Origin: Candidatus Lustribacter sp.
GTDB lineage: Bacteria > Vulcanimicrobiota > Vulcanimicrobiia > Vulcanimicrobiales > Vulcanimicrobiaceae
Direction of reading: 5' to 3'
NCBI GenBank assembly: GCA_965277805.1
Contig: OZ255842.1
Coordinates: 2,144,001-2,208,000 of the forward strand
Length of the DNA: 64,000 bases
Shown: positions 5,722 to 62,629 of the stretch, piece by piece
How positions within the stretch are numbered: the stretch's first letter is position 1
Layout: each line of letters begins with the position of its first letter
Program-made: the position numbers and the translations under genes
Notes under the pieces: model-generated
What the model was told of the DNA's origin: nothing
Database searches by the model: none
The model's input: only the letters and a program-made list of their open reading frames with translations

Positions 5722-6885
5722 TTAATGTACGCCAAAAACGATGTTGATCGTCGACCCTTGCAGCTTGCCGATTTGGAGCGGGTTGGGAACGTTTTTCTGC
5801 CCGGAATGATCGTCAGCCGTATAGTGATAAGCGGAGTTCGTGCCGTCGATCGACACCTTCTCCAGTGCCGCGCGCAACGCGTCGCCGCCGGTCGCGCCCG
5901 AAGCTTTGACGGCTTGCGCGAGGATCGTGACCGCATCCCAGCCGTACGCGGCGCCTAGCAAGTTCCCCGGGTCCAGCCCGGCAGCTTTGTACGAAACCAG
6001 AAAACCTGCGATTTTTGCCTTGATGCGCGGATTGGGAACGTTCGGGTACGCCTGCGGTGCCGTCGCGCTAAAGTAGACGTTCGGATAGGCCATCGTGGAC
6101 TGTTGCATGATCCCAAGGTCATCGCCGGTCATTACGATCGGCACCTTGAGACCGACGGTCGTTGCGGCCTTCGTTTCAACGATGTGGGTCGATCCCGTAA
6201 CGACATCGATGATCGCGTCGGGGTTCGAGTCTTTGACCTTCGACATCAAGGGCGTCAGATCGGTGGTCGATCCCTCAACGCCCGAAGACGAAAGCACGTT
6301 CAAACCCAGCTGTTGGGCCCCCGCCGCCATTTGCTGCGCGCCGAGTTGTCCGAAAGGGGTCTGCGAGTAGATGATCGCGATCGTTTTCGCGTGGAGACGA
6401 TCCTTGACAAACGCGAGCTGAATATCGACGTGCTTGTTGTGGGGGGTATTTGCGAAGAATGCCCACGTCGGATTCGGCGGAAGGTCCGAATAGACGAGCA
6501 TTGGCACTTTCGCACGCTCGACGATGGGCTCAGCCGCTCCATTCTGGGCCGAAGATAGGCCGTTGATCAGAACGCTAACGTTGAATTGATTGAGCAGCTG
6601 GTTGATCGCCGTGACCCCGGTCGTCGCGTTCGAGGCATTGTCAAGAATGTGAAGATGCACTTCGTGCCCGTCGATGCCGCCGGCCTCGTTCGCCACCTTG
6701 ACCGCCAACTTCACGCCGTCGATAAATGCCGCGTCGTTCGAGGCAAGGAACCCCGTCAGGGAAACCGCCATGCCCACCTCGATCGGCGGCTTATTCGCCG
6801 CACGACCTGAGAGGGGCATCGCAAGGAGCGACACCGCCGCGATCAGCGCAAAGGTCCGTGCAAAGAGTTTGGCTCGTAGAGTCAT
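5722..6885 (-). CDS. ABC transporter substrate-binding protein (LivK-like)
   Basis: Signal peptide MTLRAKLFARTFALIAAVSLLAMPLSGRAA, SLTG, NEAGGIDG, YGWDA; GAAGGAG RBS before ATG 6885. Confidence 0.9.
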   Translation of the reverse strand: MTLRAKLFARTFALIAAVSLLAMPLSGRAANKPPIEVGMAVSLTGFLASNDAAFIDGVKLAVKVANEAGGIDGHEVHLHILDNASNATTGVTAINQLLNQFNVSVLINGLSSAQNGAAEPIVERAKVPMLVYSDLPPNPTWAFFANTPHNKHVDIQLAFVKDRLHAKTIAIIYSQTPFGQLGAQQMAAGAQQLGLNVLSSSGVEGSTTDLTPLMSKVKDSNPDAIIDVVTGSTHIVETKAATTVGLKVPIVMTGDDLGIMQQSTMAYPNVYFSATAPQAYPNVPNPRIKAKIAGFLVSYKAAGLDPGNLLGAAYGWDAVTILAQAVKASGATGGDALRAALEKVSIDGTNSAYHYTADDHSGQKNVPNPLQIGKLQGSTINIVFGVH

Positions 6886-6932
6886 CTTGTCGTCTCCTTC
6901 ATAACGCCTCAACGGCGTCGCGTGGTGGTCAG

Positions 6933-7631
6933 TCATGCTTCGTCCGAATCCGTGACCAGCCGCGAGAGGTAGGCCCATGTACGGGGTCCCTCGCGCATGA
7001 TGTTCGCGATTTTGTGGCCTTCCATGGCGTTGATGTACGTGGGCGTTCCGCCGAGAAGCATCGTTTGCGCGAGGATACGCGCGTTGAGCACGGCGTAGAC
7101 GGCGCGAAATACCGCTTCACGAACGGACGCCCCCACAATCGTCGCTCCGTGTCCACGCATTAGGACAACCGGGCGGTCACCGAGACTCTGCGCCAAGGCT
7201 GCACCCTGCTCATTGCTGTGAATGAGCATTTCCGTCTCCGGACCGAACTGATCGCGAATTTCGAAAACCGGCAGCGGATTCTCGCCTTGGAATCCTGCCA
7301 TATGGTAAATCGGGCGAAGCGGTATCCCCGCAGCGCCAAACGGAATCAGCTCCGGCGTATGACAGTGCACGACCGCCTTGACGTCGCTACGTGCGCGGTA
7401 GATCTGGCCGTGAATGTAGCGTTCGCCGTAGGTCCGTTCCGCATGTCCGGCGGGCTCGCTCTCGAGCGTCCATCGGAAGATGTTTTTTTCGCGAACGTTT
7501 CCGGGTGGGGACGCATCGGCGATATCGTAGAAGTTCGGATCGTCCTCGCAGCGCGCGCTGACGTGCCCGTAACCATCGAGGATGCCTTGATGGGCAAGAA
7601 TCCGGTTGGCCATGACGAGGTCGTCGATCAT
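6933..7631 (-). CDS. Class II aldolase/adducin family protein (possible decarboxylase)
   Basis: DGYGHVSAR, ERYIHGQIY, VVHCH, VLMRGHG metal ligands. Confidence 0.92.
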   Translation of the reverse strand: MIDDLVMANRILAHQGILDGYGHVSARCEDDPNFYDIADASPPGNVREKNIFRWTLESEPAGHAERTYGERYIHGQIYRARSDVKAVVHCHTPELIPFGAAGIPLRPIYHMAGFQGENPLPVFEIRDQFGPETEMLIHSNEQGAALAQSLGDRPVVLMRGHGATIVGASVREAVFRAVYAVLNARILAQTMLLGGTPTYINAMEGHKIANIMREGPRTWAYLSRLVTDSDEA

Positions 7632-8365
7632 CCGACCTTGACCCCGGCCAACAGTTCGCGCCGTAAGAACTCAAGCAATTCCGTCCAAGCCGCGTTGGCC
7701 GCGTCTTCGACGTAGTGGCTCGGGCTCGTGTAATCTTGGAACGCATGACCGGCGTCGTCGTAGGTGTGGAACTCATAGCGAATCCCGTTACGCTTTAGCT
7801 CCACCTCGAGGCGCGCAACGGCCTCGGGCGACGGGTTCGTATCACGTCCCCCGAAGAACCCGGCAATCGGGCAATGAATGTGCGCGGTCAATTCGATCGG
7901 GGGCGGCATCGCAGCATCGCGCGACTCGAAAAGATTGCCATGGTAGAGCAGAACGGCGGCCTGGTAGATCGGATTCGTACCTAAGCCAAGATAGCCGGTA
8001 CGTCCCCCAAGACAGTGGCCGACCATGCCGATGCGGTCGCGGCGTACACGCGGATCCTCAACGAGATTGTCGATTGCCACGTTCATGTCGGCGACTAACT
8101 CGCTGTCGACGAGGTGCTTCATCGACGCGACGGGGTCTTCACCGATGGGCCGGCGGTGATAGTTGTTCGGCGCGGCAGCAACGAGGCCGATCGCAGCAAG
8201 GCGTTCGAGCACGTAGCGCGTGAAGGTATCGAGTCCGCCGCGATGATGAAGGACGAGAACGGCCGGATGCGGCCCTGGTCCCGGCGGATACGCCGTCAGA
8301 ACCGTCATGGGGCTGCCGCCGACGTCGAGGATTTGCTCCGAAAATTCTACAGGCTCCGCTTGCAC
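7628..8365 (-). CDS. Dienelactone hydrolase family protein
   Basis: GHCLGG nucleophile, GGRD, YDDAGHAF (Cys-Asp-His triad). Confidence 0.92.
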   Translation of the reverse strand: MQAEPVEFSEQILDVGGSPMTVLTAYPPGPGPHPAVLVLHHRGGLDTFTRYVLERLAAIGLVAAAPNNYHRRPIGEDPVASMKHLVDSELVADMNVAIDNLVEDPRVRRDRIGMVGHCLGGRTGYLGLGTNPIYQAAVLLYHGNLFESRDAAMPPPIELTAHIHCPIAGFFGGRDTNPSPEAVARLEVELKRNGIRYEFHTYDDAGHAFQDYTSPSHYVEDAANAAWTELLEFLRRELLAGVKVG

Positions 8366-8370
8366 GATAG

Positions 8371-8459
8371 TTGATCTGTTAATCTACTGGCGCCACACCT
8401 TCCTGCCTGTCGGGCGCTGGAAGGGCGCTGCTCCGGGGAAGGTCTACTTGATATATCAA
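8371..8459. promoter_or_regulatory. Divergent promoter region with palindromic operator TTGATATATCAA (8448-8459) and degenerate copy TTGATCTGTTAA (8371-8382)
   Basis: Perfect 12-bp AT-rich palindrome in a GC-rich genome, between divergent operons near hpaR. Confidence 0.55.
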
Positions 8460-8472
8460 TGAATCAACGGGC

Positions 8473-9330
8473 ATGCGGCTTTTCACCTATGACGACGGCG
8501 GTGAGCCCCGCGTCGGCGTCGCTGTCGACAATGAGCGGTTCGTGGCGCTCCACGAATGCGCGGCGGATTTGCCGCGCAACCTACGCCGACTGATCGCGCT
8601 TCCCGATGGCATCGATCGCGCTCGGCAGGCCGTCTCGGGCCGGCCGGGCGACCGGATGCTGAGCGCGGTTCGCTTTCTGCCCGTCATCACCGATCCGAAC
8701 GCCGTATGGTGTCTCGCGCTCAATTTCAAGACGCACCTGCGCGAAACCGGGCTCAGCACATCGACTGAGTTTCCGCATGTCTTTCTGCGTATGATGGCGT
8801 CGCTCGTCGGTCATGGCGAACCGTTGCATTGCCCGCCGGCGAACGTCGCGGTGGAATACGACTACGAAGGTGAGCTGGGCGTCGTGATCGGCCGCGGCGG
8901 CCGGAACATCGCGCTGGGCGATGCCCTCGACCACGTCGCCGGCTACACATGCATCAACGAAGGGTCGGTGCGCGACTACCAGCGCCATAACCGAAACTTC
9001 GGTCTGGGCAAAAACTTTGAAGCGTCGGGCAGCGTCGGCCCCTGGCTCGTCACCGCGGATTCGTTCGGTCATCCCTCGCAACAGCGCTTGATTACGCGTG
9101 TAAACGGGATTGAGCGTCAGAACGAAGCGCTAAGCGACATGCTGTTCGGCGTTGAACCCGTCATCCATTACCTCTCGCAGGGCTATGACTTACGACCGGG
9201 CGATGTCATCGCGATGGGGACGCCGGGCGCCCTCCCGAGCGGCCTCGTTCACATGCAGCCCGGCGACATCGTCGAAGTTGAGGTGACGACTCTTGGAATT
9301 TTGCGCAATCCTGTGATCGCTGGAGTTTAA
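8473..9330 (+). CDS. Fumarylacetoacetate hydrolase family protein
   Basis: DYEGELGVVIG, GYTCINE, GKNF, GPWLVT, PGDVIAMGTP. Confidence 0.94.
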   Translation: MRLFTYDDGGEPRVGVAVDNERFVALHECAADLPRNLRRLIALPDGIDRARQAVSGRPGDRMLSAVRFLPVITDPNAVWCLALNFKTHLRETGLSTSTEFPHVFLRMMASLVGHGEPLHCPPANVAVEYDYEGELGVVIGRGGRNIALGDALDHVAGYTCINEGSVRDYQRHNRNFGLGKNFEASGSVGPWLVTADSFGHPSQQRLITRVNGIERQNEALSDMLFGVEPVIHYLSQGYDLRPGDVIAMGTPGALPSGLVHMQPGDIVEVEVTTLGILRNPVIAGV

Positions 9331-10157
9331 TGATGATCGTCGATACCCACGTCCATGTCGTGTCGGATGACCTCGCGCGGTATCCCAAACGCGAGGGCGC
9401 ATTCGCTTGGCCAACCCTCACCACCGAAGACTTGCTCGCGACGATGAATGCCTGCGGTATCGACCGCGCGCTCCTCGTCCAAGCGTTCTTTACCTATGGG
9501 AACGACAACAGCTACGCGATCGATGCTGCGCGAGCCCACCCCGAACGCTTCCTGAGCGTCTGCGTGATCGATCAACTCGCCGACGACGCGCCGGACGTGC
9601 TTAGCGATTTGGTCGAAAATCACGGCGTTCGGGGGTTGCGCCTCATGGGCACGAAGCGCCCCGGTATCCTCAACAACCCGAAGACGTTTCCATTGTGGCA
9701 GCGGGCGGCGGACCTCAAGATTCCGGTCTGCGTTGCGGCGGAGTTACCAGAGATTCCCGACGCGCTTGACGTGATCGCGCGCTTTCCACAAGTGCCGGTC
9801 GCGCTCGAACACATGTGGGGCTTGGAACTGGGCGATCCGCCCTACGAAGTCGTTGCTCCGGTACTCGCTGCTGCGCAACTGCCGAACGTCAAGCTCAAGC
9901 TTGCACCGAATAACTCGTACGCTGCCCGGGTCGGTGCGGCAACGCCGCGCACGTTCTTCGGGATGCTGGCCGAACACTTCGCACCAGAGCGCATGATGTG
10001 GGGTTCGAATTATCCGGCGCACTGGGATAAGTACGGTAAGATCTCGGAACGCCTTGCGGTGATGCGCGACGACCTTGCCTTCCTCGGTGCGGACTGGAAC
10101 GAGTGGTTTTTTGGCAAGTCCGCCTTGACGTTCTGGCCGTCCCTGGCAGCGGTGTAA
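9330..10157 (+). CDS. Amidohydrolase_2 family protein
   Basis: DTHVH, GNDNSY, RGLRL, LEHM, MWGSNYP. Confidence 0.92.
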   Translation: MMIVDTHVHVVSDDLARYPKREGAFAWPTLTTEDLLATMNACGIDRALLVQAFFTYGNDNSYAIDAARAHPERFLSVCVIDQLADDAPDVLSDLVENHGVRGLRLMGTKRPGILNNPKTFPLWQRAADLKIPVCVAAELPEIPDALDVIARFPQVPVALEHMWGLELGDPPYEVVAPVLAAAQLPNVKLKLAPNNSYAARVGAATPRTFFGMLAEHFAPERMMWGSNYPAHWDKYGKISERLAVMRDDLAFLGADWNEWFFGKSALTFWPSLAAV

Positions 10158-10211
10158 GTCAACTTTGAAAGGGGAGCCCTGCGTCTGCGGCGCGTACTTT
10201 AACGCCGTCCG

Positions 10212-10727
10212 ATGAGCAAAGCTTCGAGCAGCGTCGCGAGGAAACACGCACGCGTCGCACCGATCCGCAAGATTCCACCGCCGCTTCCTCTCCAAATGCT
10301 GCGGGCACGGGAAGCCGTCATGCGACGCTTTCGCCCATTCCTGCGCGACCTGGGCTTGAACGACCAGCAGGGCCGGATCATCCGCGTGTTGGCCGAGGCG
10401 GACCAACTGGAGATGCGCGAGTTATCCGCGCGTACGTGTATCCACCCCGCAAGTCTTTCACGTATTATCCCACGCCTGGTCGAACGCAGAATCGTCCAAC
10501 GCTGGAAAGATGAAGACGATGCTCGTCGCGTTGTGGTTGCCATTACTGCTGGCGGGCGTTCGCTTTTCAAAGTGCTAGCCCGCAACTCTGAACGCATCTA
10601 CGCGGAGCTTGCCTCCGAAATCGGCTCGGTCAGAATGCGCGACCTCTACCGCTGCCTCAACGTCCTTATCGAACTCGATCCCGATCTAGACGGCTCCCTG
10701 GAAGAAATGGACGAAGCCGAGGGCTAG
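10212..10727 (+). CDS. hpaR: MarR family regulator, HpaR-like
   Basis: LPLQMLRAREAVMRRFRPFL..GLNDQQGRIIRVL and CIHPASLSRI match the HpaR signature. Confidence 0.8.
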   Translation: MSKASSSVARKHARVAPIRKIPPPLPLQMLRAREAVMRRFRPFLRDLGLNDQQGRIIRVLAEADQLEMRELSARTCIHPASLSRIIPRLVERRIVQRWKDEDDARRVVVAITAGGRSLFKVLARNSERIYAELASEIGSVRMRDLYRCLNVLIELDPDLDGSLEEMDEAEG

Positions 10728-13451: not shown

Positions 13452-13720
13452 CGCGGCACTCCCGGATTCGCCCACGACTGCCAGAGTCCGAGTTCGAAAA
13501 GCTGCACGTTGACCGCACGCAGCAAGGCGGACGTTGCGACCATGCCTTCGGTGGCGGTCAGCGCGCCGGGTGTCGTCGCCGCGAATGGGCCGTTCGCTTC
13601 GACGCGCGCACAATATAGCCGAACCGCGGCCGTGAGGAGCTCCTGAATCGTCGCGTCGTCCAGCGGGGCGCCCTCAGCGCTGGCGATCAAATCTCGAACT
13701 GAGTTACGCGATAACAACAT
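13448..13720 (-). CDS. Small hypothetical protein (~90 aa) between the Rieske ferredoxin and the amidohydrolase
   Basis: MLLSRNSVRDLIASAEG...LLTAAVRLY...TATEGMVATSALLRAVNVQLFELGLWQSW; overlaps both neighbours; start may be 13726. Confidence 0.75.
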   Translation of the reverse strand: MLLSRNSVRDLIASAEGAPLDDATIQELLTAAVRLYCARVEANGPFAATTPGALTATEGMVATSALLRAVNVQLFELGLWQSWANPGVPR

Positions 13721-14072
13721 AAACATCGTCCCCTTTCGTGATGACCTCAAATTTTTTGAGTCGCTTACGGCGGTCGCCGACGAACTCGCCGGTCTTGATA
13801 TCGTACTCGTATCCATGCCACGGGCAGACGAAATGAATATCGTCCTTGGAAAAGCGCTGCCCAAGATAGGTCTTATCGGGAGCGATAATATCCTCGACTT
13901 GTGCCATCGTGAGGCCTTCGCATGCCGGTCCACCCTGATGAACGCACAGATTTTGATACGCATAGAACTGCCCGGCGCTCTGCAAGACACCGATTTCGAG
14001 TTCGCCGGCCTGCACGATTTTTCGGCCGTCATATTTGAAATCAGCGCGCGTGCCGACATAGATTTCTGCCAT
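13704..14072 (-). CDS. Rieske [2Fe-2S] ferredoxin
   Basis: NLCVHQGGP...CPWHGYEYDIKTG with a long insert between the two ligand boxes; GGAGGA RBS. Confidence 0.93.
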   Translation of the reverse strand: MAEIYVGTRADFKYDGRKIVQAGELEIGVLQSAGQFYAYQNLCVHQGGPACEGLTMAQVEDIIAPDKTYLGQRFSKDDIHFVCPWHGYEYDIKTGEFVGDRRKRLKKFEVITKGDDVYVVIA

Positions 14073-14117
14073 GCTTCCTCCCACGGGTCCGGCCCGATTC
14101 ATTAAGACATATATGAT

Positions 14118-53759: not shown

Positions 53760-55448
53760 TTAGACACCACCGAAGCGTAGGCGGTTGAAACTGATCATCT
53801 GCACGAGCGGATCCGCACGATCGCCGCTCGCCGCGCGATCGACCAGCACGTTCACGACGGCCGTCTTCCCCCCGCGCACCGCCGCTAACGCCCGATCGAA
53901 GGCGGGGCCGACATCCGCGGGCGTCGGGGCAAACTCGCCGTCACATTCCAATCCTCGCGCAACGACGTCATACCGGCTCTGATTCATATCCACTCCGGTC
54001 GTGCCGTTGAATAACCGCAGCGTAATGTTGCGGCTCGAACCCCACGTGCCATCGTTCGCCACCATCACGAAGATAGGCAGCCTGTGGAGCGACGCGGTCG
54101 CAAGTTCGGCGAGATACTGTCCGAACGCACCGTCGCCGGTCCCGAGATACACGTGACGCGAGCTACCGTCTTCCTGAAACGCCGCCGCCGCGCCGATCGC
54201 AAACGGTAAGCCCATTCCCATCGCCCCGAACGGTTCGTGATCCAGAAATCCGGGCGACGATTGAATCCGCAGCGTCGCCTTATACCAGTTGTTGCAATTC
54301 GCGCCGTCGCCGACAAACAGCGCGTCCGGAGCCATGCGCGCGGCAAGTTCGCGCGCCATGCGCAGAGGATGCACTTGCCCCTCGTCGGATTTTCCCAAGC
54401 TCGCGATCTTCGCCACGCGCGGCGCAATGGCGGCCTTCGCCCAACTCCCGTCCCACGCAGCGGCCTTCGCTGCAACCAAATCGTCTCGCAGCGCCTCGAG
54501 CGCGAGCCGCGTGTCGCCCGCCATCGGCGCTTCAACCACGCGGTTGCGTCCGATCTCTGCCGCAGTGTTCGTAATCTGAATGTACGCCGCGTCGACTGCA
54601 AAGAACGGCGGCGCGGCAAACCCGATACCGCCCTCGAGCCGTCCGCCGGCAAAAATGACGACGTCCGCTTCGCGCGCGCAGATGCTCCCCATCGGCCAGC
54701 CGAACACGGTCTCAAAATCTTCGGGAATGAGTCCGCGGCTCGGGCCCTGCAGCAACACCGGAATGCCGAACTCGCGATTGAGCTGCGATAAAACGTCGCC
54801 CGCATGCGACCAATACGCCCCGCGTCCCGCTACGATGAGCGGTCGCTTCGCCTTCGCCAACAACGCCGATGCACGGGCCACGTCTTCCGGCGCCGGACGC
54901 GGTTCGCGCGCGCGAATCACCGGCCCGAGCGAACGCGCCGCCACGGCTTCATCCACTTCCGCCGTCGCAACGTCACGCGGAATCTCAAGCAGCACGGGGC
55001 CCGGGTCGCCGGAGAGCGCGATCCGCGCCGCCATCTCGACGTACTCGCCGAGCCGGTTCGCATCGTGCACGACTTGCGACCACTTCGTCACCGAGCGCAC
55101 CAGCCGCGCATGATCGAGCTCTTGCTGCGGGCGCGCATCGAGCATCGCAAACGGGTTCCGTCCCGCGAAGACGATCAGCGGCGTCCCGGCATCGTTGGCC
55201 GATGCGATCCCGCCGACCGCGTTCGCCAGTCCCGGCCCCGATGTTACGCACGCGACCCCAAGCGAACGCCGCGTCGTCGCGTACCCATCGGCCGCGAGCA
55301 CCACCGCGCTCTCGTGGCGCATGTGCAGCAGCCGCATGCCGCGCCGGTCGACCGCCCCGAAGAACGATTCGAGGTGTCCGGGCAAACCGAACACCGTCCG
55401 AACGCCTTGGCGCTCCACCGCCGCCGCCATCAGGTCCGCTCCAAGCAT
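53760..55448 (-). CDS. TPP-binding enzyme (ALS/2-hydroxyacyl-CoA lyase/benzaldehyde lyase-like)
   Basis: RHESA, TSGPG, PGPVLLEIP, GAMGMGLP, GDGAFG...ND; AGGAG RBS before ATG 55448. Confidence 0.92.
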   Translation of the reverse strand: MLGADLMAAAVERQGVRTVFGLPGHLESFFGAVDRRGMRLLHMRHESAVVLAADGYATTRRSLGVACVTSGPGLANAVGGIASANDAGTPLIVFAGRNPFAMLDARPQQELDHARLVRSVTKWSQVVHDANRLGEYVEMAARIALSGDPGPVLLEIPRDVATAEVDEAVAARSLGPVIRAREPRPAPEDVARASALLAKAKRPLIVAGRGAYWSHAGDVLSQLNREFGIPVLLQGPSRGLIPEDFETVFGWPMGSICAREADVVIFAGGRLEGGIGFAAPPFFAVDAAYIQITNTAAEIGRNRVVEAPMAGDTRLALEALRDDLVAAKAAAWDGSWAKAAIAPRVAKIASLGKSDEGQVHPLRMARELAARMAPDALFVGDGANCNNWYKATLRIQSSPGFLDHEPFGAMGMGLPFAIGAAAAFQEDGSSRHVYLGTGDGAFGQYLAELATASLHRLPIFVMVANDGTWGSSRNITLRLFNGTTGVDMNQSRYDVVARGLECDGEFAPTPADVGPAFDRALAAVRGGKTAVVNVLVDRAASGDRADPLVQMISFNRLRFGGV

Positions 55449-55470
55449 TATTTCTCCTCGGGAAGGGCGA

Positions 55471-55968
55471 ATGGGTCGTTCAATGAGTAAACGAGCTTCC
55501 CTCGACATTCGGCAAATGCGGAACGAAGATTTTCTCAGCTACAAGATCAGCGTCCTCAGCCGCATCCTCGACCGCGGGGTCGACAAGAAGCTGCTGACCG
55601 GCCTGAACCTGCCGCTCACCTCGCTGCGCATCCTCGGCCACCTCCACGCGCACGGCGAAGGCCGCGTGCTCGCCATCGCGCGCAACATGCATCTGCTCGG
55701 TTCGCAGATCAGCCAGAGCATGACCGAGCTCGTCAACTACGGCCACGTCGCAAAGAAGCCCGACCCAACCGACAAGCGCGGCACGCTGTTCCGTCTCACC
55801 CCGAAGGGCCGCCGGCTCTACGAAGGCGTCTTGGCCCGGGCGCAAGCCAAGCAAGAAACCGTGGCCGAGGTGATCGGTCCCGCCAACTATGCCCTCGTGA
55901 GCGACTGCCTCGACGCGCTGATCGCGCACTACGGAGCCCCCGGAGCAGCCGTCCTCGAGTCCGCGTAG
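55471..55968 (+). CDS. MarR family transcriptional regulator
   Basis: FLSYKISVLSR, DPTDKR, LTPKGR; start uncertain (55471/55483/55516). Confidence 0.88.
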   Translation: MGRSMSKRASLDIRQMRNEDFLSYKISVLSRILDRGVDKKLLTGLNLPLTSLRILGHLHAHGEGRVLAIARNMHLLGSQISQSMTELVNYGHVAKKPDPTDKRGTLFRLTPKGRRLYEGVLARAQAKQETVAEVIGPANYALVSDCLDALIAHYGAPGAAVLESA

Positions 55969-55980
55969 AAGACCATCCGC

Positions 55981-57270
55981 ATGGCCCTGACCCAGACACA
56001 GCAGCAAACCCTCATTGAAACCGGCCGCGGCACGCCGATGGGCGAGCTCTTCCGCCGCTATTGGATCCCGGCGATGCTCTCGTGGGAACTCCCCGAGCCC
56101 GATTGCGACCCGGTGCAGATCCGCTTGATGGGCGAAGACTTACTCGGTTTTCGCGACACCGCCGGCAACCTCGGCCTCGTGCAAGAATTCTGCCCGCACC
56201 GCGGCGTCTCGCTCTTCTACGGACGCAACGAAGAGTGCGGCATCCGCTGCTCCTATCACGGGTGGAAGTTCGACGTGAACGGCACCTGCGTCGACATGCC
56301 GTCCGAACCCGACGAGAGCAGCTTCAAAGATAAGGTGCGACTGACGGCTTACCGGCTGATCGAACAGGGCGGCGTGCTGTGGGCGTACATGGGCCCGCCC
56401 GAACTCGAACCGCCGCTGCCGCAACTCGAGTGGTCGCTGCTGCCGCCCGCCAATCGCTACGTCTCCAAGCGCATTCAGGAGTGCAACTACCTGCAAGCGC
56501 TCGAGGGCGGGATCGACTCGAGCCACGTCTCAACGCTGCACCGCTTCAACCTCGACGACGATCCGATGCACGTAGGCGCGCACGGCAACGTCTTCCTCAA
56601 AGCCGACACGCGGCCGAAGTTCGAAGTGCAAGATTCCAAGAGCGGCTTACTCATCGGCGCGCGCCGCAATGCGGATGCGCAGAACGACTACTGGCGCATC
56701 ACGCCGTTCATCATGCCGTGGTACACGATCATCCCGCCGTTCGGCGCTAACGTAATCGGCGCGCACGCGTTCGTTCCGATGGACGACGAAAATTGCTGGA
56801 CGTGGAGCATCAACTACGATCCGGCCCGCGAACTCACCAAAGAGGAAGTCGCCGCAATGGATGCGGGCATGGGCATTCACGTCGAGTACGTTCCCGGCAC
56901 GTTCCGCCCGAAGGCCAACCGCGACAACCACTACCTCATCGACCGCAGCGCGCAGCGCGGCAAGAAATCGTTCAGCGGCGTCAAGGGCATTTCGATGCAA
57001 GACGCCTCGCTGCAAGAGAGCATGGGCCGCATCGTCGACCGCACGACCGAACGGCTCGGAACGAGCGACGCCGCGATCATCGCCGCGCGCCGCACGCTCC
57101 TGCGCGCCGCGGAAGAACTCGTGGAAGGCGGCCCGCCGCCGATCGCGACCGAGCCCGAAGCGCAGTACGTCCGTTCCGCGTCGATCCTGATTCCGAAGGG
57201 CGTTCCGTTCGCCGAAGGCGCCGCCGAAGCACTCCGCGCCGCCCCCGGCAAACCGTTCGTCAGCGTCTAG
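55981..57270 (+). CDS. Rieske oxygenase alpha subunit, phthalate 4,5-dioxygenase-like
   Basis: GTPMGELFRRYWIP, CPHR..CSYHGW, CNYLQALEGGIDSSHVSTLH, QDASLQESMG, ERLGTSD. Confidence 0.94.
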   Translation: MALTQTQQQTLIETGRGTPMGELFRRYWIPAMLSWELPEPDCDPVQIRLMGEDLLGFRDTAGNLGLVQEFCPHRGVSLFYGRNEECGIRCSYHGWKFDVNGTCVDMPSEPDESSFKDKVRLTAYRLIEQGGVLWAYMGPPELEPPLPQLEWSLLPPANRYVSKRIQECNYLQALEGGIDSSHVSTLHRFNLDDDPMHVGAHGNVFLKADTRPKFEVQDSKSGLLIGARRNADAQNDYWRITPFIMPWYTIIPPFGANVIGAHAFVPMDDENCWTWSINYDPARELTKEEVAAMDAGMGIHVEYVPGTFRPKANRDNHYLIDRSAQRGKKSFSGVKGISMQDASLQESMGRIVDRTTERLGTSDAAIIAARRTLLRAAEELVEGGPPPIATEPEAQYVRSASILIPKGVPFAEGAAEALRAAPGKPFVSV

Positions 57271-57707
57271 TCCCGAAATGCGTTGATCGCATGAGCGAGT
57301 TCCGTGCGCAGGGCCGTCACGTCGATTGCCAGTGCACCATCCTCGCCCACCTCGAGCGGGACGGCGAATTCGTGCTGGAGGTGCGGCTGCGCATCGAGCC
57401 GCGCGACCTCGCAATGCCCTTGCAAATGATAGCAGCACTCAGCTGAAGCATCGAAGTCGCTGCGCAAATAGAGCGTGATCTCGGCCAGCAGCGACGGCTC
57501 GACGCGCTGCGCCGAAATATGCACCGTACCGCTTTCAGTGATGCCTACTTTAACGATCGGCGCCGTGTCGACGCCGCCGTCGCCATCGAAAAACGGACCG
57601 CTGAACGCGCTGAGAGCCTGGTCGCGCACTTCGGTGAGAATGTCGCGCACGGCGCGTGGATGGGCAGTGCGCGTCTCGAGCTCCGCGCGGGCCGGCGGCT
57701 CTTTCAT
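57267..57707 (-). CDS. Hypothetical protein
   Basis: 146-aa ATG ORF filling the gap and convergent with the oxygenase; no motif recognised. Confidence 0.55.
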   Translation of the reverse strand: MKEPPARAELETRTAHPRAVRDILTEVRDQALSAFSGPFFDGDGGVDTAPIVKVGITESGTVHISAQRVEPSLLAEITLYLRSDFDASAECCYHLQGHCEVARLDAQPHLQHEFAVPLEVGEDGALAIDVTALRTELAHAINAFRD

Positions 57708-57775: not shown

Positions 57776-58654
57776 TCAGCAGTTACATTTGATCGCGAAG
57801 GCACGCTCGTTGCCGAGTAACGACTCGCCCACGCTGGCGTGCGCCGCCATGTGCCGATCGGTAATCTTGATTCCACCGCCCCGGTAAAGTTCTTCCGTGG
57901 CGATCTCCCAGTCGCGATTTCCGTCGACGTCCCACTGAAACGGAAGCGACTTCATCGCCCAGTTGCCCGGATCGAACTCCGGGGCGAGTTCGAGCGTTCG
58001 ACGCAGAATTTCGCGCTGCTGCGCCGCTTCGTGCGGCTTTCCGGCCGGACAGCCTAAAGGGAAATCCAAGAAGCAGGTGCGAGGCGGCTTTACGGCAGCG
58101 CTCATTTCCCAGAGCACGCTCGTGCTGATCGTCGGCAATCCACGAGCCTCTAAAGCACGAGCGATGAGGCCGGTCGCTCGATGACACGCGGGGCAGAACG
58201 GGAGCATTAATACAAGGTCGACTCCCTGCGCGTCGAAGACTGCCTTAATTCGCGGCACCGTCTGTTCCATCAATTCGGTATAGCGCTCGATCGATCCGAC
58301 CATCGAGACGTTCGTGTGGGCGAGCCGCTTGAACATTCCCTCGCGTTCCAACTCTTTCATCCGGTCGATCGGGTAGGCCACGTTCAGGTCCTCCAGGGCC
58401 CACTTGCGCACGAGAGTTTGGTGCGACACCACCAGCCGATCGATCGGCGTATCCCGCGGCAGCAACCGAAACGTTATGTCTTCCGTCTCAAGGAGCGGCG
58501 GGTCTTCGGGGAGTTGCGCGCCGCAACTCACGAATATCCCGATTGTTGATTCCGCCACCGGTTTGCGCAAAGGCACAAGCGTGGGTGGATCAAACTCGGG
58601 CATCGGAATCGATCGCCCTGATTCGGCGAGAAATCGAGAGAAGCTATATGGCAT
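57776..58654 (-). CDS. D-proline/glycine reductase selenoprotein B (PrdB/GrdB)-like protein, Cys variant
   Basis: DITFRLLP, SH, DLNVAYPIDRMKEL, GVDLVLMLPFCPACHR, ALEARGLPT, PPR, GKPH; C-terminal CNC. Confidence 0.85.
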   Translation of the reverse strand: MPYSFSRFLAESGRSIPMPEFDPPTLVPLRKPVAESTIGIFVSCGAQLPEDPPLLETEDITFRLLPRDTPIDRLVVSHQTLVRKWALEDLNVAYPIDRMKELEREGMFKRLAHTNVSMVGSIERYTELMEQTVPRIKAVFDAQGVDLVLMLPFCPACHRATGLIARALEARGLPTISTSVLWEMSAAVKPPRTCFLDFPLGCPAGKPHEAAQQREILRRTLELAPEFDPGNWAMKSLPFQWDVDGNRDWEIATEELYRGGGIKITDRHMAAHASVGESLLGNERAFAIKCNC

Positions 58655-58663
58655 TTTTAGGTT

Positions 58664-59017
58664 TCATCCCGCCACCGGCCGAGCGTTTTGTGCTGCATAC
58701 GTGTCGTGCGATTCGCTGGAACTGTCGATGTGCCGGTCCCAACGCACGAGCGTCGCGTCTCCGAACACGCCTTTTTTGGTGAACGGATCGCCGGCGTGAA
58801 AGTCTTTGACCGCCTTCATCGACGTGGCTTCGAGGATAAAGAAACTACCAACATTCTGATCGCTCGCGTCGCTGCCGCACATCGGTCCGGCCTGGAGGAT
58901 GTGAACGTTCTCGCCCGGGGACAGAAATGGGACCAGATATGCGCGGTGTTCCGACCGCGTTGTGTCGCGTAAAGCGTCCTTCCCTGGGCTGTCAAAACAC
59001 ATTCTAAGGTAGAGCAT
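58664..59017 (-). CDS. YciI family protein
   Basis: R..HRAYL, AGP, GSFFILEA, DPF. Confidence 0.9.
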   Translation of the reverse strand: MLYLRMCFDSPGKDALRDTTRSEHRAYLVPFLSPGENVHILQAGPMCGSDASDQNVGSFFILEATSMKAVKDFHAGDPFTKKGVFGDATLVRWDRHIDSSSESHDTYAAQNARPVAG

Positions 59018-59055
59018 ATCGCCTCACTTTCTGCAATTAATACTCGAGCGCGTCG

Positions 59056-59439
59056 CTACTGTAGGACAAATTTACCGTCTGAGAACGTAAGCCGGATGGT
59101 GAGCCCGCCTTCATTCACCATCCACGGCCGGACAACGAATGAGCGTGCTCCGCATTTGTGCATCGGATCGCTCGCGGCTAGTTCCTTGGCGTGCGTGAGT
59201 GAGCGCGCGCGAATAACGAACATTCCATCGCCCTCCCACTGCGTCTCATCATCCGTCCAATGTGGACCGGCTGCCACCATGATGCCGTCCGCCTCGATCT
59301 TGCATTGGTGTGCAAGATGCGCCTCGAGGTTTTCCATCACGGGTTCGATCCCGTTTGTGGGAGTACTGAACACGACGTAAAATTGCTTTTGCAGCATGCC
59401 CATACTGGCTTGCATAACATCGTCTTTAGTGACGGGCAT
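59056..59439 (-). CDS. YciI family protein
   Basis: HLAHQ, AAGP, GMFVIRA, DPMH, VRPW. Confidence 0.88.
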   Translation of the reverse strand: MPVTKDDVMQASMGMLQKQFYVVFSTPTNGIEPVMENLEAHLAHQCKIEADGIMVAAGPHWTDDETQWEGDGMFVIRARSLTHAKELAASDPMHKCGARSFVVRPWMVNEGGLTIRLTFSDGKFVLQ

Positions 59440-60647
59440 CAGTCCGCACCGCCGCCCTTCGGCAAAAGCCCCTCGGGCCGCTCGAAGTTATGAAGTGGAC
59501 GCCCTTCGGCCAGTGCTTTGAGTTCCTGAGTATAAAGTCGCCGAATCGCGACGACCCCGACGTCCGTCGAGCCGAGATTTTCGATGCCGCGACGGCGATC
59601 GGCGATGACGCCCTGACCCACTTGCACGACTTCGTCCTGCGCGAGCGGCACGTGGTGGCATATTTCGGCGATCTTGTCGTAAGGCAGCTCGCCCCGCAAA
59701 ACCTTCTGCGCTACTTCGTGAGCCTCTGCTTCCGCGTTCGCGAAATCTTTCCAGCGCTTCTTGTACTCCTCGCTGGGCTTGCCGTTCATGAAGGTAGCGA
59801 TGCAATGGACCTGGAGGTGGGAGACATCGTCGACCGGTACCCGATAGTCGAGGAACATCTGCCACGCGGTCTCGTCCGCGTTGCGTTCTTCGCCTTGGCG
59901 TTTGATGTTGTCGGGATGCACGGCGAACATGCAGATGTTGGGCATGCCGAACTGCACGATGCGGTCGTTACCGTCTTGTTTCTTGGCGACCATGCGCAGG
60001 CCCCAAGGCGTTTTCTCGCACGACAGCTCGGGGAGATGCTTCAGATCAAGGCCTTCGAGCGCGGAGCGCTTGTGCGTGAACCAAACGTGAGCTTCGTCCT
60101 GATAGTTCTCGACGTTCTGAAACCAATTGCACGGGCGCGTATCAATCTGCGCCGAGACGAAGGGGGCGTTTTCCCATTCGGGATAGCGGGTAAATTCCGG
60201 CGGTTCGCCTTCGCCGAGATAGACCCAGATGAAGCCGAGATATTCCTGTGTCGCGTATCCACCGATGCGGATGTGGTTGGCGAACCCGGCCCGCTCCATC
60301 GGCTGGTCCACACACTGACCGGTCGGGGCATATGCCCAGCCGTGATACGGGCAGCGGATCACGTCGCCTTCGACCCACCCCGTGCTGAGCATCGCGCCGC
60401 GATGCGCGCAGCGGTTCTCGACGCAATGGACCTGGCCGTCCTGACTGCGATACAGCGCGAGCTTCTGGCTCATGATCGTCAGTGGCTTCGCGGCGCCGGG
60501 CTCAAGGTTGCGACCGCAATAGATGGGGTGCCAGAAACGCCGCAGGTACGTGCCGGCCAAGGTTCCCGGACCGGTGCGGATATAGTCGACCGTGCCGGGA
60601 TCGGTGAACTGCGCGATGTCTAACTCAACGGGTTCCTGTTCGATCAT
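59439..60647 (-). CDS. Rieske oxygenase alpha subunit (LigX/O-demethylase-like)
   Basis: TGPGTLAGTYLRRFWHP, CAHR..CPYHGW, CNWFQNVENYQDEAHVWFTH, QD, ENLGSTD. Confidence 0.92.
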   Translation of the reverse strand: MIEQEPVELDIAQFTDPGTVDYIRTGPGTLAGTYLRRFWHPIYCGRNLEPGAAKPLTIMSQKLALYRSQDGQVHCVENRCAHRGAMLSTGWVEGDVIRCPYHGWAYAPTGQCVDQPMERAGFANHIRIGGYATQEYLGFIWVYLGEGEPPEFTRYPEWENAPFVSAQIDTRPCNWFQNVENYQDEAHVWFTHKRSALEGLDLKHLPELSCEKTPWGLRMVAKKQDGNDRIVQFGMPNICMFAVHPDNIKRQGEERNADETAWQMFLDYRVPVDDVSHLQVHCIATFMNGKPSEEYKKRWKDFANAEAEAHEVAQKVLRGELPYDKIAEICHHVPLAQDEVVQVGQGVIADRRRGIENLGSTDVGVVAIRRLYTQELKALAEGRPLHNFERPEGLLPKGGGAD

Positions 60648-61651
60648 TGACGCTCTCCTTCAAATTGCGGTGAGACCCAATCCGCCACGCTCTGCGCAAG
60701 CTCGTGGGCCAGGTCGAGATCGTGACAGTACACACCGATTGCGCCGGCCACCGCCGTACCGACGCGGATCGGGTATCCGCCAGGCAACGCCAGCATCCGG
60801 TACGGAACCGCGTCCATCAGTCTGTCGAGGACGCCGCCGGAATAATGACGGTGAGCGGCGATGTCGCGCGAAGCCATGCCGAAATTGACTGCCGCCGTCG
60901 CAGTGGCTATCGCGATGTCGGCCCCCATTGGCGGCGCACCGTCCATTCGATCAAGCGTGACGGCATCGCCGGCCGCGTCAACGACGGCGACTGCCGCACG
61001 CGCCCCCGTTTCCGTCGCCTGGGCTATCACCCAATCGGAAACCGCCCGCGCTCGCGTCAGAACAGCCTGCCTGCTAGCCTCGGGCACCGGATCCATGGCC
61101 GTTCCCTTCATCGTCGGATCCGGCGGAGCTCCGTAGGCTTCTGTCCAGCGAGCGGCGTCATCTCCGTGCTGCGGATTGTACGACATGCCGAGGGCGTAGC
61201 TGATGATCGTGTCCTCGAGATTCGCAGGCTTGCCGTCGACCATAAGTTGGGACGGCGGGACGCCCGGCAACTTGACGAATGGCCCGATGCCGAGGCCCGT
61301 CGCAATGGCGCCGACGATCCGGCCGTCCTCTATCACCGGCATCCCACCGGCGCCTGGAAACGGCTGATCGCGAAGAACGGCCTGATAGCTGGCGAAGACG
61401 CCGGGAAACTTCGCCATTCGTTCGGCGAAGCGCGCGCTCGGCTCGCCGTTCGCGGCCGTGGCAAACGCCTTCGCACGAACGAGCGGCAAGGCGGCGGGGG
61501 CGCAGCCATCCATGCGGACCACGCTCACCGGAGCTCCCGAAGCGTCGACCACGATGAAGGTTCCGGACTGCCGAAAAGCCTCGCACTTCGACACCGCACG
61601 CGCAAGCAACGCGCGGGCTTTGGAAAGCGTGAGGGTACTGGAATCAATCAT
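60644..61651 (-). CDS. Tandem GlcG/HbpS (heme-binding) domain protein
   Basis: Two VVDA.G....RMDG...A...AA...GG.P....G...GAI repeats. Confidence 0.85.
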   Translation of the reverse strand: MIDSSTLTLSKARALLARAVSKCEAFRQSGTFIVVDASGAPVSVVRMDGCAPAALPLVRAKAFATAANGEPSARFAERMAKFPGVFASYQAVLRDQPFPGAGGMPVIEDGRIVGAIATGLGIGPFVKLPGVPPSQLMVDGKPANLEDTIISYALGMSYNPQHGDDAARWTEAYGAPPDPTMKGTAMDPVPEASRQAVLTRARAVSDWVIAQATETGARAAVAVVDAAGDAVTLDRMDGAPPMGADIAIATATAAVNFGMASRDIAAHRHYSGGVLDRLMDAVPYRMLALPGGYPIRVGTAVAGAIGVYCHDLDLAHELAQSVADWVSPQFEGERQ

Positions 61652-61745
61652 GAGGGCGCAAACCTTTTGTCGAAGATCGCAATCGGCCTATACGCGTCTT
61701 CAGTCGAGCCGAACTGTACCAGAGGAAGGACGCGGTCATGAAGTC

Positions 61746-61774
61746 GAGTAGAACTCCTAGTACTTCTAGTACTC
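61746..61774. promoter_or_regulatory. Operator-like CTAGTACT direct repeat (61757 and 61766) within an imperfect GAGTA..TACTC palindrome
   Basis: In the divergent region between the GlcG operon and the MmyB-like regulator. Confidence 0.45.
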
Positions 61775-61789
61775 GTCCACGGAGCGCCC

Positions 61790-62629
61790 ATGAACTCCGC
61801 TGATCCGGCCGCGCGTCGCAAAGAGCTGGGGATGTTTTTGCGCTCGCGGCGCCAAGCGATTGCACCCGAGGCTGCCGGGCTACGGCGAGGCGCGCGCCGC
61901 ATCGCGCGTGGCTTGCGTCGCGAGGAAGTGGCCGGCCTCGCGAACATTGGGGTCGTTTGGTATACCTGGCTCGAGCAGGGGCGCCCCGTGCGACCCTCTT
62001 CCGAAACGCTCACGCGGATTGCTCGCGTGCTGCGGCTCTCCCCGGAGGAATCGGGCTATGTCTTTAGCTTGGCCGAAAGGCAAATCGTACCATGGGGCGA
62101 GCTCGTAACGGCGGTGTCAGGCGACATCAAGGCGATGCTCAATGCGTTCACCGGCAGCGCGTTCGCGGTCAACGCGCGTATGGATCATCTTGCCTGGAAC
62201 CGGCAAACGGCGGCCCTCTACGAATTCGGCGACGGCACTGATTGGAAAGCCAACAATCACATTTGGCGCATGTTCAAGGACCCGGTCCTACGCCGCATCG
62301 TGCGTAACTGGGACGAGATGTTCCACGGTCCAGTCGCAATCTTTCGCTCGTTGTATGCCCATCATGGTGCAGACGCCCGCATCGACGAACTCCTTGACGC
62401 GCTTGCCGATTCGCCCGAGTTCACGCGCGCGTGGTCTGAAAAAACGGTCGGCCGCGGGCCGGCTATTGAGCTCTGCTTCGAAACGGCCGCCGGGCCGATC
62501 GCGGTGCGGTCGATGACCTTAGAGCCGCCCGCACTTCCAGGGGTCGTGTTGTTTCTGCAAACGCCGCTCGATGACAAAAGCCACGCCGCCCTCCAGCACT
62601 TAGCCAAGCGAACCGGATTGCACTCATGA
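61790..62629 (+). CDS. XRE/MmyB-type transcriptional regulator (HTH + PAS-like ligand domain)
   Basis: ELGMFLRSRR, GLRREEVAGLA, WYTWLEQGR, LAWN, SPEFTRAW. Confidence 0.93.
   Translation: MNSADPAARRKELGMFLRSRRQAIAPEAAGLRRGARRIARGLRREEVAGLANIGVVWYTWLEQGRPVRPSSETLTRIARVLRLSPEESGYVFSLAERQIVPWGELVTAVSGDIKAMLNAFTGSAFAVNARMDHLAWNRQTAALYEFGDGTDWKANNHIWRMFKDPVLRRIVRNWDEMFHGPVAIFRSLYAHHGADARIDELLDALADSPEFTRAWSEKTVGRGPAIELCFETAAGPIAVRSMTLEPPALPGVVLFLQTPLDDKSHAALQHLAKRTGLHS

Follow-up and report, generated by a model that had tools for sequence, protein, structure and literature searches.

We describe a five-gene operon from the genome of a peat-soil bacterium, Candidatus Lustribacter sp., that encodes a member of a widespread, uncharacterized subfamily of PrdB-like proteins and suggests a step of aerobic degradation, so far unstudied, that would rely on a thiol or selenol. 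The stretch analysed (the window) is 64,000 nucleotides (nt) long and corresponds to C1:2144001–2208000, where C1 is the single contig of a 5.53-Mb genome that is 95% complete; positions without this prefix are those of the window. The operon consists of five tightly packed minus-strand genes, for a tandem HbpS/GlcG protein (GlcG2; DUF336 twice, 335 amino acids (aa); 60644–61651), an alpha-only Rieske non-heme iron oxygenase (402 aa; 59439–60647), two YciI proteins (YciI-127, 59056–59439; YciI-117, 58664–59017) and the PrdB-like protein (292 aa, Cys-type; 57776–58654), facing a divergent plus-strand gene for an MmyB-like transcription regulator (61790–62629). In operon order, the junctions are a 4-nt ATGA overlap (GlcG/Rieske), a 1-nt overlap, a 38-nt gap and a 9-nt gap. 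An earlier interpretation made from the letters alone (the sequence-only reading) had described five co-directional, close-packed genes under an MmyB-like regulator; its coordinates proved correct, and Pfam and NCBIfam profiles supported all six gene families (PF03928 in two stretches, 125 bits, for GlcG2; PF00355, 79.9 bits, with a weak LigXa_C match, for the oxygenase; PF03795, 35.8 bits for YciI-127 and 43.8 bits for YciI-117, cut-off 24; TIGR04483, E = 2.1 × 10−38, for the PrdB-like protein). Among public sequences, the PrdB-like gene has its nearest relatives in Eremiobacterota/Vulcanimicrobiota (Candidatus Lustribacter) metagenome-assembled genomes (MAGs) from bogs. The interest of the locus rests mainly on the link between this PrdB-like subfamily and aerobic aromatic catabolism, not on the five-gene arrangement.

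PrdB and GrdB selenoproteins are textbook enzymes of anaerobic Stickland fermentation. The TIGR04483 match of the window protein spans profile positions 13–234 of 238, with the PrdB-matching region ending at residue 241, and its score lies below the family cut-off (132.1 versus 300 bits). The cut-offs of the GrdB/GrdF/GrdH profiles were likewise missed (GrdF, 41.8 versus 800 bits; GrdH, 34.4 versus 775; TIGR01918, 29.3 versus 65.45), and the Pfam GRDB family (PF07355) gave 21.7 bits against a gathering score of 22, with paralogues in the same genome reaching 43 and 60 bits. At the level of profile comparison, the full-length PrdB match and the paralogue scores still show homology to the selenoprotein B superfamily. 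Compared with PrdB of the D-proline reductase of Clostridium sticklandii, the homology covers the whole PrdB length and the (U/C)xxC motif stands at the same place; the window protein differs in its sub-cut-off score, in having Cys for selenocysteine (Sec), in an extension of ~50 residues that ends in CxC, in its aerobic oxygenase context and in belonging to a genome without a PrdA match. The C154-P-A-C157 redox motif is encoded at 58184–58195 (minus strand; Cys154 TGC, Cys157 TGT) and the C290-N-C292 tail at 57779–57787 (minus strand; Cys290 TGT, Cys292 TGC), so that the protein ends in CNC. Among 46 diverse members of the superfamily, C154 never varies and conservation of C157 is 90% or higher, and Cys154 aligns exactly with an in-frame TGA in two paralogues from the same genome (PF-C-PAC versus PT-U-PLC).

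These features extend far beyond the window. We recovered 325 close homologues and, at the 50%-cluster level, 1,079 representatives (E ≤ 0.001); among the 120 closest homologues, 118 carry PFCPACH and all end in CxC (CNC in 119, CDC in one). A scan of the subfamily with one genome per species gave 76 loci, assigned to Acidobacteriota (28), Actinomycetota (21), delta-proteobacterial/Thermodesulfobacteriota-labelled genomes (11), Eremiobacterota (7), Binatia (5) and others (4). The motif was visible in 69 of the 76, with 70 instances that divide into 51 with Cys (TGC in 30, TGT in 21) and 19 with TGA, and a CxC end accompanies 67 of the 70 instances, including all 19 Sec-type ones, within the C-terminal extension past the PrdB-matching part. 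Thus, the two details that the sequence-only reading had singled out, a Cys at the usual Sec position and a terminal CNC, both proved to be more than peculiarities of one protein: TGA occupies the position in the two paralogues and in 19 of the 70 instances, and the CxC tail is a conserved feature of the subfamily. Judged by its motifs, this is an uncharacterized and widespread subfamily defined by (U/C)PxCH together with a C-terminal CxC. Its chemistry is most likely redox, because the superfamily is characterized by a Sec/Cys nucleophile paired with a conserved resolving Cys and Sec forms are common in the subfamily, and by analogy the conserved CxC end looks like a built-in relay.

The window protein appears to stand alone, as had been proposed earlier. 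Profiles for PrdA (TIGR04480), Gly_reductase (PF09338, which covers GrdE and PrdA) and GRDA (PF04723) found no match in the genome; because these profiles were also silent in all 14 control genomes, the strength of this negative depends on how complete the genome is (95%, one contig). The check for prdA and sel genes proposed in the sequence-only reading otherwise yielded a tRNA-Sec (C1:4941254–4941347) and selB above its cut-off, and the genome does use selenocysteine. It contains five PrdB-like genes, of which three are Cys-type (100, 93 and 91% identity to the window protein) and two, each encoding ~390 aa with a single in-frame TGA, are candidate selenoproteins. The 93%-identical paralogue lies apart from the gene clusters described below, beside FAD hydroxylases. 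The two TGA-bearing genes (C1:2097574–2098764, plus strand; C1:3856656–3857819, minus strand) encode an extra C-terminal domain of ~170 aa without a match in Pfam. Each TGA is followed by a short hairpin whose loop is GGUC-like and whose stem differs on both sides between the two genes (GAACAC/GTGTTC versus TCACAC/GTGTGA); RNAalifold found no consensus among 27 post-TGA segments because the hairpin registers differ between subgroups, and these hairpins, which resemble selenocysteine insertion sequences, are thus described by direct reading.

We next consider the genomic company that the subfamily keeps, viewed at ±5 kb around each of the 76 loci. What recurs there is the aerobic catabolism of aromatics, probably methoxylated compounds derived from lignin, and the window locus and its relatives together place a defined PrdB-like subfamily in aerobic aromatic-catabolic clusters of Eremiobacterota, Acidobacteriota, Actinomycetota and Binatia/delta-proteobacterial MAGs. 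A YciI-127-like gene was found near the PrdB-like gene in 5 loci, all from Actinomycetota (5 of 21). In Amycolatopsis rhabdoformis, the gene order is SDR, YciI, PrdB-like, an MhpA-like FAD hydroxylase (over the NF004829 cut-off), a DesA/LigM-like aryl O-demethylase (DesA/LigM-like scores of 529 and 498 bits) and PurU, with a VOC dioxygenase upstream; a Catenulispora operon reads PrdB-like, FAH, VOC, SGL, YciI and FAD hydroxylase; and in Kutzneria a YciI gene is followed by the PrdB-like gene. Acidobacteriota contribute a different arrangement, in which an Amidohydro_2 gene follows the PrdB-like gene (21 of the 76 loci by tblastn, 26 by clustering). Further neighbours are FAD aromatic hydroxylases (8 loci), FAH (5), VOC (4), glutathione S-transferase (GST; 3) and GCV_T (3) genes. 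The oxygenase-containing, aromatic-catabolic setting that the sequence-only reading had assigned to the window operon therefore recurs around the PrdB-like family elsewhere.

Within its own genome, the GlcG2/Rieske/YciI/PrdB-like combination occurs three times. Cluster 2 (C1:2102674–2107455) is a copy of the whole block, regulator included, with 81.9% DNA identity over 4,822 bp and 81–91% identity among the proteins. Cluster 3 (C1:2093610–2098764) is more distant (Rieske 53%, GlcG2 44%, YciI-127 94% and PrdB-like 35% identical, the last being Sec-type), encloses a MarR regulator and a nitroreductase, and has a VOC dioxygenase ~0.8 kb downstream. The three clusters take in all 3 GlcG2 genes of the genome, 3 of its 4 YciI-127 homologues and 3 of its 5 PrdB-like genes. 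The ratios of non-synonymous to synonymous substitution rates (dN/dS) between copies (0.03–0.16) indicate purifying selection on every copy; because the 4.8-kb block was duplicated whole and its copies are under such selection, the arrangement reflects more than chance.

The first gene pair of the operon is shared with other bacteria. In the Rieske oxygenase, both the Rieske motif CAHRG...CPYH (CAHRGAMLSTGWVEGDVIRCPYH at residue 80) and the mononuclear iron motif DxxHxxxxH (NYQDEAHVWFTH at residue 181) are intact, and its relatives in the PDB (7fhr, NdmA, CarAa, KshA and DdmC) place it in the phthalate/carbazole/NdmA/KshA/DdmC class. GlcG2 adjoins the Rieske gene in all six loci whose Rieske protein reaches 53% identity or more. 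Three of these belong to this genome; the others come from Sphingobium jiangsuense (GlcG2 68%, Rieske 76% identical), a MAG of the Sphingomonadaceae (54% and 69%) and a further genome of Eremiobacterota (50% and 58%). In S. jiangsuense DSM 26189 (positions 5976–10212 of the locus examined there), the GlcG2–Rieske pair is followed by an FNR/Fer2 reductase, a VOC extradiol dioxygenase and an MFS transporter, with a TetR regulator, and this cultured strain would be a tractable system for the DUF336–Rieske pair. No FNR-type Rieske reductase was present among the 59 open reading frames (ORFs) scanned in the window, which does contain a 132-aa Rieske ferredoxin (13704–14102); the sole FNR/Fer2-type reductase homologue found in the genome is at C1:2507363–2508232, ~300 kb from the operon. 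The genome holds ~91 homologues of the alpha-only Rieske class (tblastn, E < 1 × 10−5, at least half of the query covered), and four relatives hold 8, 49, 35 and 18. Because these ~91 genes share one detectable reductase of this type, an operon without a reductase is not special: the sequence-only reading was right that none is present, and in this genome such an absence is the rule.

The nearest solved relative of GlcG2 is EfgA (6bws, E = 7.6 × 10−9). Both halves of the 335-aa protein match PF03928, as do EfgA, GlcG and HbpS, which differ from it in that the window protein is a two-domain tandem, translationally coupled to a Rieske oxygenase. EfgA is described as a formaldehyde sensor in an account that also notes DUF336 genes in a chloroaniline degradation cluster (PMC8153426); we found no paper pairing DUF336 with a Rieske oxygenase. 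If the oxygenase acts as an O- or N-demethylase, it would release formaldehyde, and hence it is an attractive idea, by analogy with EfgA, that the tandem DUF336 protein might bind the formaldehyde released. The conserved tandem-DUF336–Rieske pair is, in any case, a second and independent lead, here on the unexplained DUF336 domain.

The YciI pair has its own history. YciI-127 is distinguished by an N-terminal extension and a DPMHKCGAR motif, and it is present in all three clusters of the genome (the other copies being 86% and 94% identical, with dN/dS of 0.03–0.06). In other genomes its homologues adjoin VOC dioxygenases, FAH genes and nitroreductases. Across 21 relatives, H41 is invariant and D91 at least 90% conserved, which makes them candidates for a His–Asp dyad of the TftG type. 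The Cys of the DPMHKCGAR motif is common to YciI-127 relatives and missing in the actinobacterial YciI proteins encoded beside PrdB-like genes. The Sphingomonadaceae MAG carries the same tandem (YciI-127 56%, YciI-117 43% identical) ~6.5 kb from its GlcG2–Rieske pair (positions 3088–5273 of the locus examined there, C1:20000–38000 of that MAG), in a YciI127–YciI117–FAD hydroxylase–FAH–VOC dioxygenase–nitroreductase operon that a GST gene faces. Searched with a profile of the 46 superfamily members, neither sphingomonad genome yielded a PrdB-like gene, and the MAG is thus a natural comparison case in which this component is missing. Among YciI proteins with reported roles, TftG acts on chlorohydroxyhydroquinone (as 5-chlorohydroxyhydroquinone dehydrochlorinase; PMC7641849) and pnpX1 is described in p-nitrophenol/hydroquinone clusters (PMC6063337). 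TftG and pnpX1 are both encoded in (hydroxy)hydroquinone catabolic clusters. YciI-127 keeps a conserved His41 and Asp91, a possible counterpart of the TftG dyad, whereas its homologues have the DPMHKCGAR motif and N-terminal extension and lie beside catechol-type extradiol dioxygenases and HpaG-like FAH genes.

How might these parts work together? The glutathione-dependent enzymes of aromatic pathways include the reductive dehalogenases PcpC and LinD, glutathionyl-hydroquinone reductases and maleylpyruvate isomerase, in which a thiol attacks a quinone, enone or halo-hydroquinone; C-terminal thiol shuttles are known from the CGC arm of Erv2 and the GCUG end of thioredoxin reductase, where a flexible Cys-x-Cys tail relays electrons to a CxxC site. 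The likeness to all of these is one of function alone, with no sequence or fold relation to the PrdB-like protein. Our preferred, though tentative, reading is that the latter may be a self-contained thiol/selenol oxidoreductase that acts on an electrophilic intermediate of an aromatic pathway by GST-like chemistry; its substrate, the type of reaction, the shuttling by the tail and the replacement of GSTs are what we infer from the evidence above. The operon would then be a lineage-specific aromatic-catabolic module put together from three parts: the translationally coupled tandem-GlcG and alpha-only Rieske pair, which would hydroxylate or O-demethylate an aromatic substrate; the YciI-127/YciI-117 pair, which would act on a ring-derived intermediate; and the stand-alone PrdB-like protein as the thiol oxidoreductase. 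Cys154 (Sec in many relatives) would attack an electrophilic carbon, such as that of a quinone or enone or a leaving-group carbon next to a carbonyl; Cys157 would resolve the adduct, giving the reduced product and a Cys154–Cys157 disulfide; and the flexible Cys290-x-Cys292 tail would relay reducing equivalents from a cellular reductant, probably thioredoxin, to the active site. Candidate reactions for such a GST-like role would be quinone or enone reduction, or the reductive removal of a substituent after a YciI-catalysed step. The genome gave no match to glutathione synthetase (GSH-S_ATP, PF02955) and only three weak matches to GST_N_3, despite its rich aromatic-catabolic gene content. We propose GST-like chemistry for the PrdB-like protein because the counterpart in sphingomonads includes a GST but lacks a PrdB-like gene, whereas this genome has no GSH-S_ATP match.

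A number of results weigh against this proposal. None of the other genomes searched contained the five-gene set. Around the 76 subfamily loci, a GlcG2 gene occurs in none and a Rieske oxygenase in one; in a scan of the phylum (401 genomes, 30 with a match, 29 loci viewed at ±1.5 kb), none of the 29 loci had a YciI, Rieske or GlcG neighbour, and two of the matching genomes are unpublished, with none of our conclusions depending on them; among 15 YciI-127 loci, a PrdB-like gene was present in none; and 8 loci of close relatives have the PrdB-like gene alone in common. Given this lack of conservation, the operon is a mosaic particular to its lineage and not an established pathway unit, and it is best seen as such in a genome that freely assembles catabolic cassettes. 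The co-occurrence of YciI, Rieske and GlcG genes around stand-alone PrdB-like proteins that the sequence-only reading had proposed to look for was seen in some loci for YciI, in a single one for a Rieske oxygenase and in none for GlcG2; what survives of its overall interpretation is the stand-alone protein, the Cys at the Sec site, the conserved tail and the aromatic contexts, whereas a conserved pathway unit is not supported, the lack of conservation being what it had itself named as counting against its reading. The contexts of the subfamily are also heterogeneous, taking in binding proteins, luciferase-like monooxygenases, PQQ dehydrogenases, P450 and nitrile hydratase, and for this reason no single function can be read from them. 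The oxygenase itself needs no PrdB-like protein, because the sphingomonad GlcG2–Rieske pair has an ordinary reductase and no PrdB-like gene. The VOC dioxygenases of related clusters have homoprotocatechuate and catechol 2,3-dioxygenases and the uncharacterized 3b59 as their best solved relatives, and the FAH proteins are closer to HpaG-type isomerase/decarboxylases and a rhamnonate hydrolase than to fumarylpyruvate hydrolases; a specifically quinone/hydroquinone reading is weakened accordingly, and an assignment of these VOC enzymes to the PcpA/LinE-type hydroquinone dioxygenases was dropped on the same grounds. The inference about glutathione depends on one profile (PF02955) in a 95%-complete genome, and where a GST gene adjoins the PrdB-like gene (3 of 76 loci) the two co-occur and the one does not replace the other. 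Finally, we found no known substrate or activity for any subfamily member and no related solved structure: a search of solved structures by sequence gave no relative (best E = 0.27), and with the AlphaFold2 model (mean confidence, pLDDT, 94.8) Foldseek returned nothing at E ≤ 0.001, VIA-align only generic Rossmann-like/LacI-type alpha/beta folds (Z ≤ 7.5) and the ESM Atlas, with PF07355 clusters excluded, no usable match.

The heterogeneity of the subfamily's contexts lends itself to another explanation, unlikely in our view yet deserving serious attention, in which the genes are co-transcribed but functionally separate and the PrdB-like protein (possibly the YciI proteins too) serves in general redox protection, thiol repair, or the detoxification or sensing of electrophiles. 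The 93% paralogue outside the clusters would fit, as would a genome with ~91 Rieske genes and few GSTs. A role in sensing also has a parallel in a 495-aa metagenomic representative (P0174) in which an XRE-type HTH_3 domain is fused to a GRDB/PrdB-like one, which suggests that the fold can serve as the ligand- or redox-sensing module of a transcription factor. Functional separation sits poorly, however, with the tight spacing of the genes and the duplication of the whole block with its regulator, with the joining of YciI-127 to two different PrdB-like subfamilies within the three GlcG2–Rieske clusters, and with the independent origin of YciI–PrdB-like adjacency in Actinomycetota.

The FAH neighbours bear on a further alternative, which we consider improbable although it stays a live rival: that the protein is a cofactor-independent covalent-thiol isomerase or tautomerase, whose Cys/Sec154 would add reversibly to the C=C bond of a maleyl- or 2-hydroxymuconate-type ring-fission product and so catalyse a cis–trans isomerization before an FAH-family hydrolase, standing in for glutathione-dependent isomerases. 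Covalent-Cys maleate isomerase provides chemical precedent, and FAH lies directly beside the PrdB-like gene in two distant lineages (the Catenulispora PrdB-like–FAH–VOC series, and locus L078, where 8 nt separate the end of an FAH gene from a Sec-type PrdB-like gene) among the five loci that have it; in the sphingomonad MAG, which has no PrdB-like gene, it is a GST that stands beside the YciI–FAD hydroxylase–FAH–VOC operon. Yet a resolving Cys and a CxC tail, both conserved, would be superfluous for isomerization, the FAH proteins are not closest to fumarylpyruvate hydrolases, the window operon itself has neither an FAH nor a ring-cleavage gene, and the top 50 fold matches included no racemase/maleate-isomerase fold, an absence of little weight.

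Since S. jiangsuense has its FNR/Fer2 reductase directly after the Rieske gene, exactly where the window has YciI–YciI–PrdB-like, and only one such reductase homologue was found in this genome, one might also suppose that the two YciI proteins, together with the PrdB-like protein, stand in for the absent reductase, feeding electrons to the Rieske oxygenase or keeping its iron centres reduced. We regard this as very improbable: the subfamily is mostly found beside FAD monooxygenases or with no oxygenase at all, the ~91 Rieske genes are likewise without an adjacent reductase, and we know of no precedent for a two-electron dithiol donor to a one-electron [2Fe-2S] centre. Least credible of all is a conventional selenoprotein-B subunit of a Stickland-type D-proline/glycine reductase with its PrdA/GrdE partner encoded elsewhere, for although PrdB is the best family match (TIGR04483) and the Joint Genome Institute labels homologues 'D-proline reductase (dithiol) PrdB', that match falls short of the family cut-off (132 versus 300 bits), profiles for PrdA, Gly_reductase and GRDA found nothing in the single-contig genome, the CxC extension is specific to the subfamily and the neighbours are aerobic oxygenases.

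The thiol/selenol oxidoreductase that we favour would have relevance well beyond this genome. PrdB homologues with UxxC rank with the commonest selenoprotein families reported from the Sargasso Sea and Global Ocean Sampling metagenomes (42 and 235 Sec sequences, with Cys homologues present; PMC1088965, PMC2398784), and in what these sources say of them no function has been given to the ocean 'PrdB' selenoproteins since the 2005 count by Zhang and Gladyshev. The ocean family is like the one described here in that UxxC homologues, in Sec and Cys forms, are abundant outside Stickland fermenters; it differs in that only counts are available there, whereas here a soil subfamily with a CxC tail is linked to aromatic-catabolic neighbourhoods. 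A 2026 review treats D-proline reductase under TIGR04483 and, in the portion available, discusses the clostridial enzyme alone. Our literature searches for PrdB with YciI found nothing, and those for PrdB-like and GrdB-like proteins found nothing on aerobic or aromatic contexts (the searches covered main texts, not supplementary files). The closest functional parallel is FarB/FarE, a GrdB/GrdE-like pair proposed, from transcriptomics, as the fluoroacetate reductase of Cloacibacillus porcorum, with reductive C–F cleavage (PMC10838667). FarB shares with the present proposal the recruitment of a selenoprotein-B relative for reductive C–X cleavage of a non-amino-acid substrate, by nucleophilic attack of Sec; it differs in being anaerobic, in keeping a GrdE-like partner and in feeding the glycine reductase system. 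A broader possibility, which we think rather unlikely as it stands, is that the (U/C)PxCH + CxC proteins form a new class of self-contained (seleno)thiol enzymes of aerobic aromatic catabolism that, with YciI, replace the reductive or addition–elimination chemistry of GSTs in soil phyla lacking glutathione. If GST replacement were true, it would amount to a protein-based thiol/selenol strategy for handling electrophilic aromatic intermediates, and if the class were real, it would provide the first functional handle on the 'PrdB' selenoproteins abundant in oxic metagenomes. An aerobic PrdB-like function is directly testable, because the natural Cys forms are easy to express and there are cultured hosts (Amycolatopsis, Catenulispora, Nocardia and Mycobacterium).

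Control of the operon may lie in its divergent spacer. The regulator has both features of MmyB-like proteins, an N-terminal HTH domain (HTH_31, PF13560, 43.1 bits) and an MLTR_LBD ligand-binding domain (PF17765, 98.8 bits), and sits within the duplicated block, its cluster-2 copy being 86% identical in protein sequence. By direct reading, repeated AGTACT palindromes (GAGTACTAGAAGTACTAG) adjoin the start of its gene in the intergenic region (61652–61789), and an AGTACT-n3-AGTACTAG core is the best-kept part of the spacer when aligned to the intergenic region of cluster 2, the remainder having diverged; we consider this AGTACT element a candidate operator. A promoter scan of the locus gave no sigma-70-like site, terminator-like sites numbered 6 against 5.3 expected by chance, and the sequencing runs found to contain the locus (four, from one study) included no RNA run.

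The rest of the window is rich in aromatic-catabolic genes, among them a LigB-type dioxygenase, VOC enzymes, an FAD hydroxylase, FAH and a dienelactone hydrolase, together with five Amidohydro_2 genes, many MarR regulators and binding proteins, and three Rieske/LigXa-type oxygenases in all. Downstream of the operon lie a second Rieske/LigXa_C oxygenase (55981–57270) and a MarR-like regulator (55195–55968); a 146-aa ORF at 57267–57707 (minus strand), placed between these two genes and the PrdB-like gene, was not counted as an operon member, having no family match and lying outside the duplicated block. Six NMT1/THI5-like binding-protein genes occur in the window (30355–53741), and genes of this kind border the PrdB-like gene at 5 of the 8 close loci; their abundance probably reflects a lineage-wide expansion and not a specific link to the PrdB-like gene. 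The AT-richer stretch remarked on in the sequence-only reading is also real: GC content drops to 0.55–0.60 at ~58200–60200, where both YciI genes and the 3′ portion of the Rieske gene lie, compared with 0.62–0.70 in the flanks.

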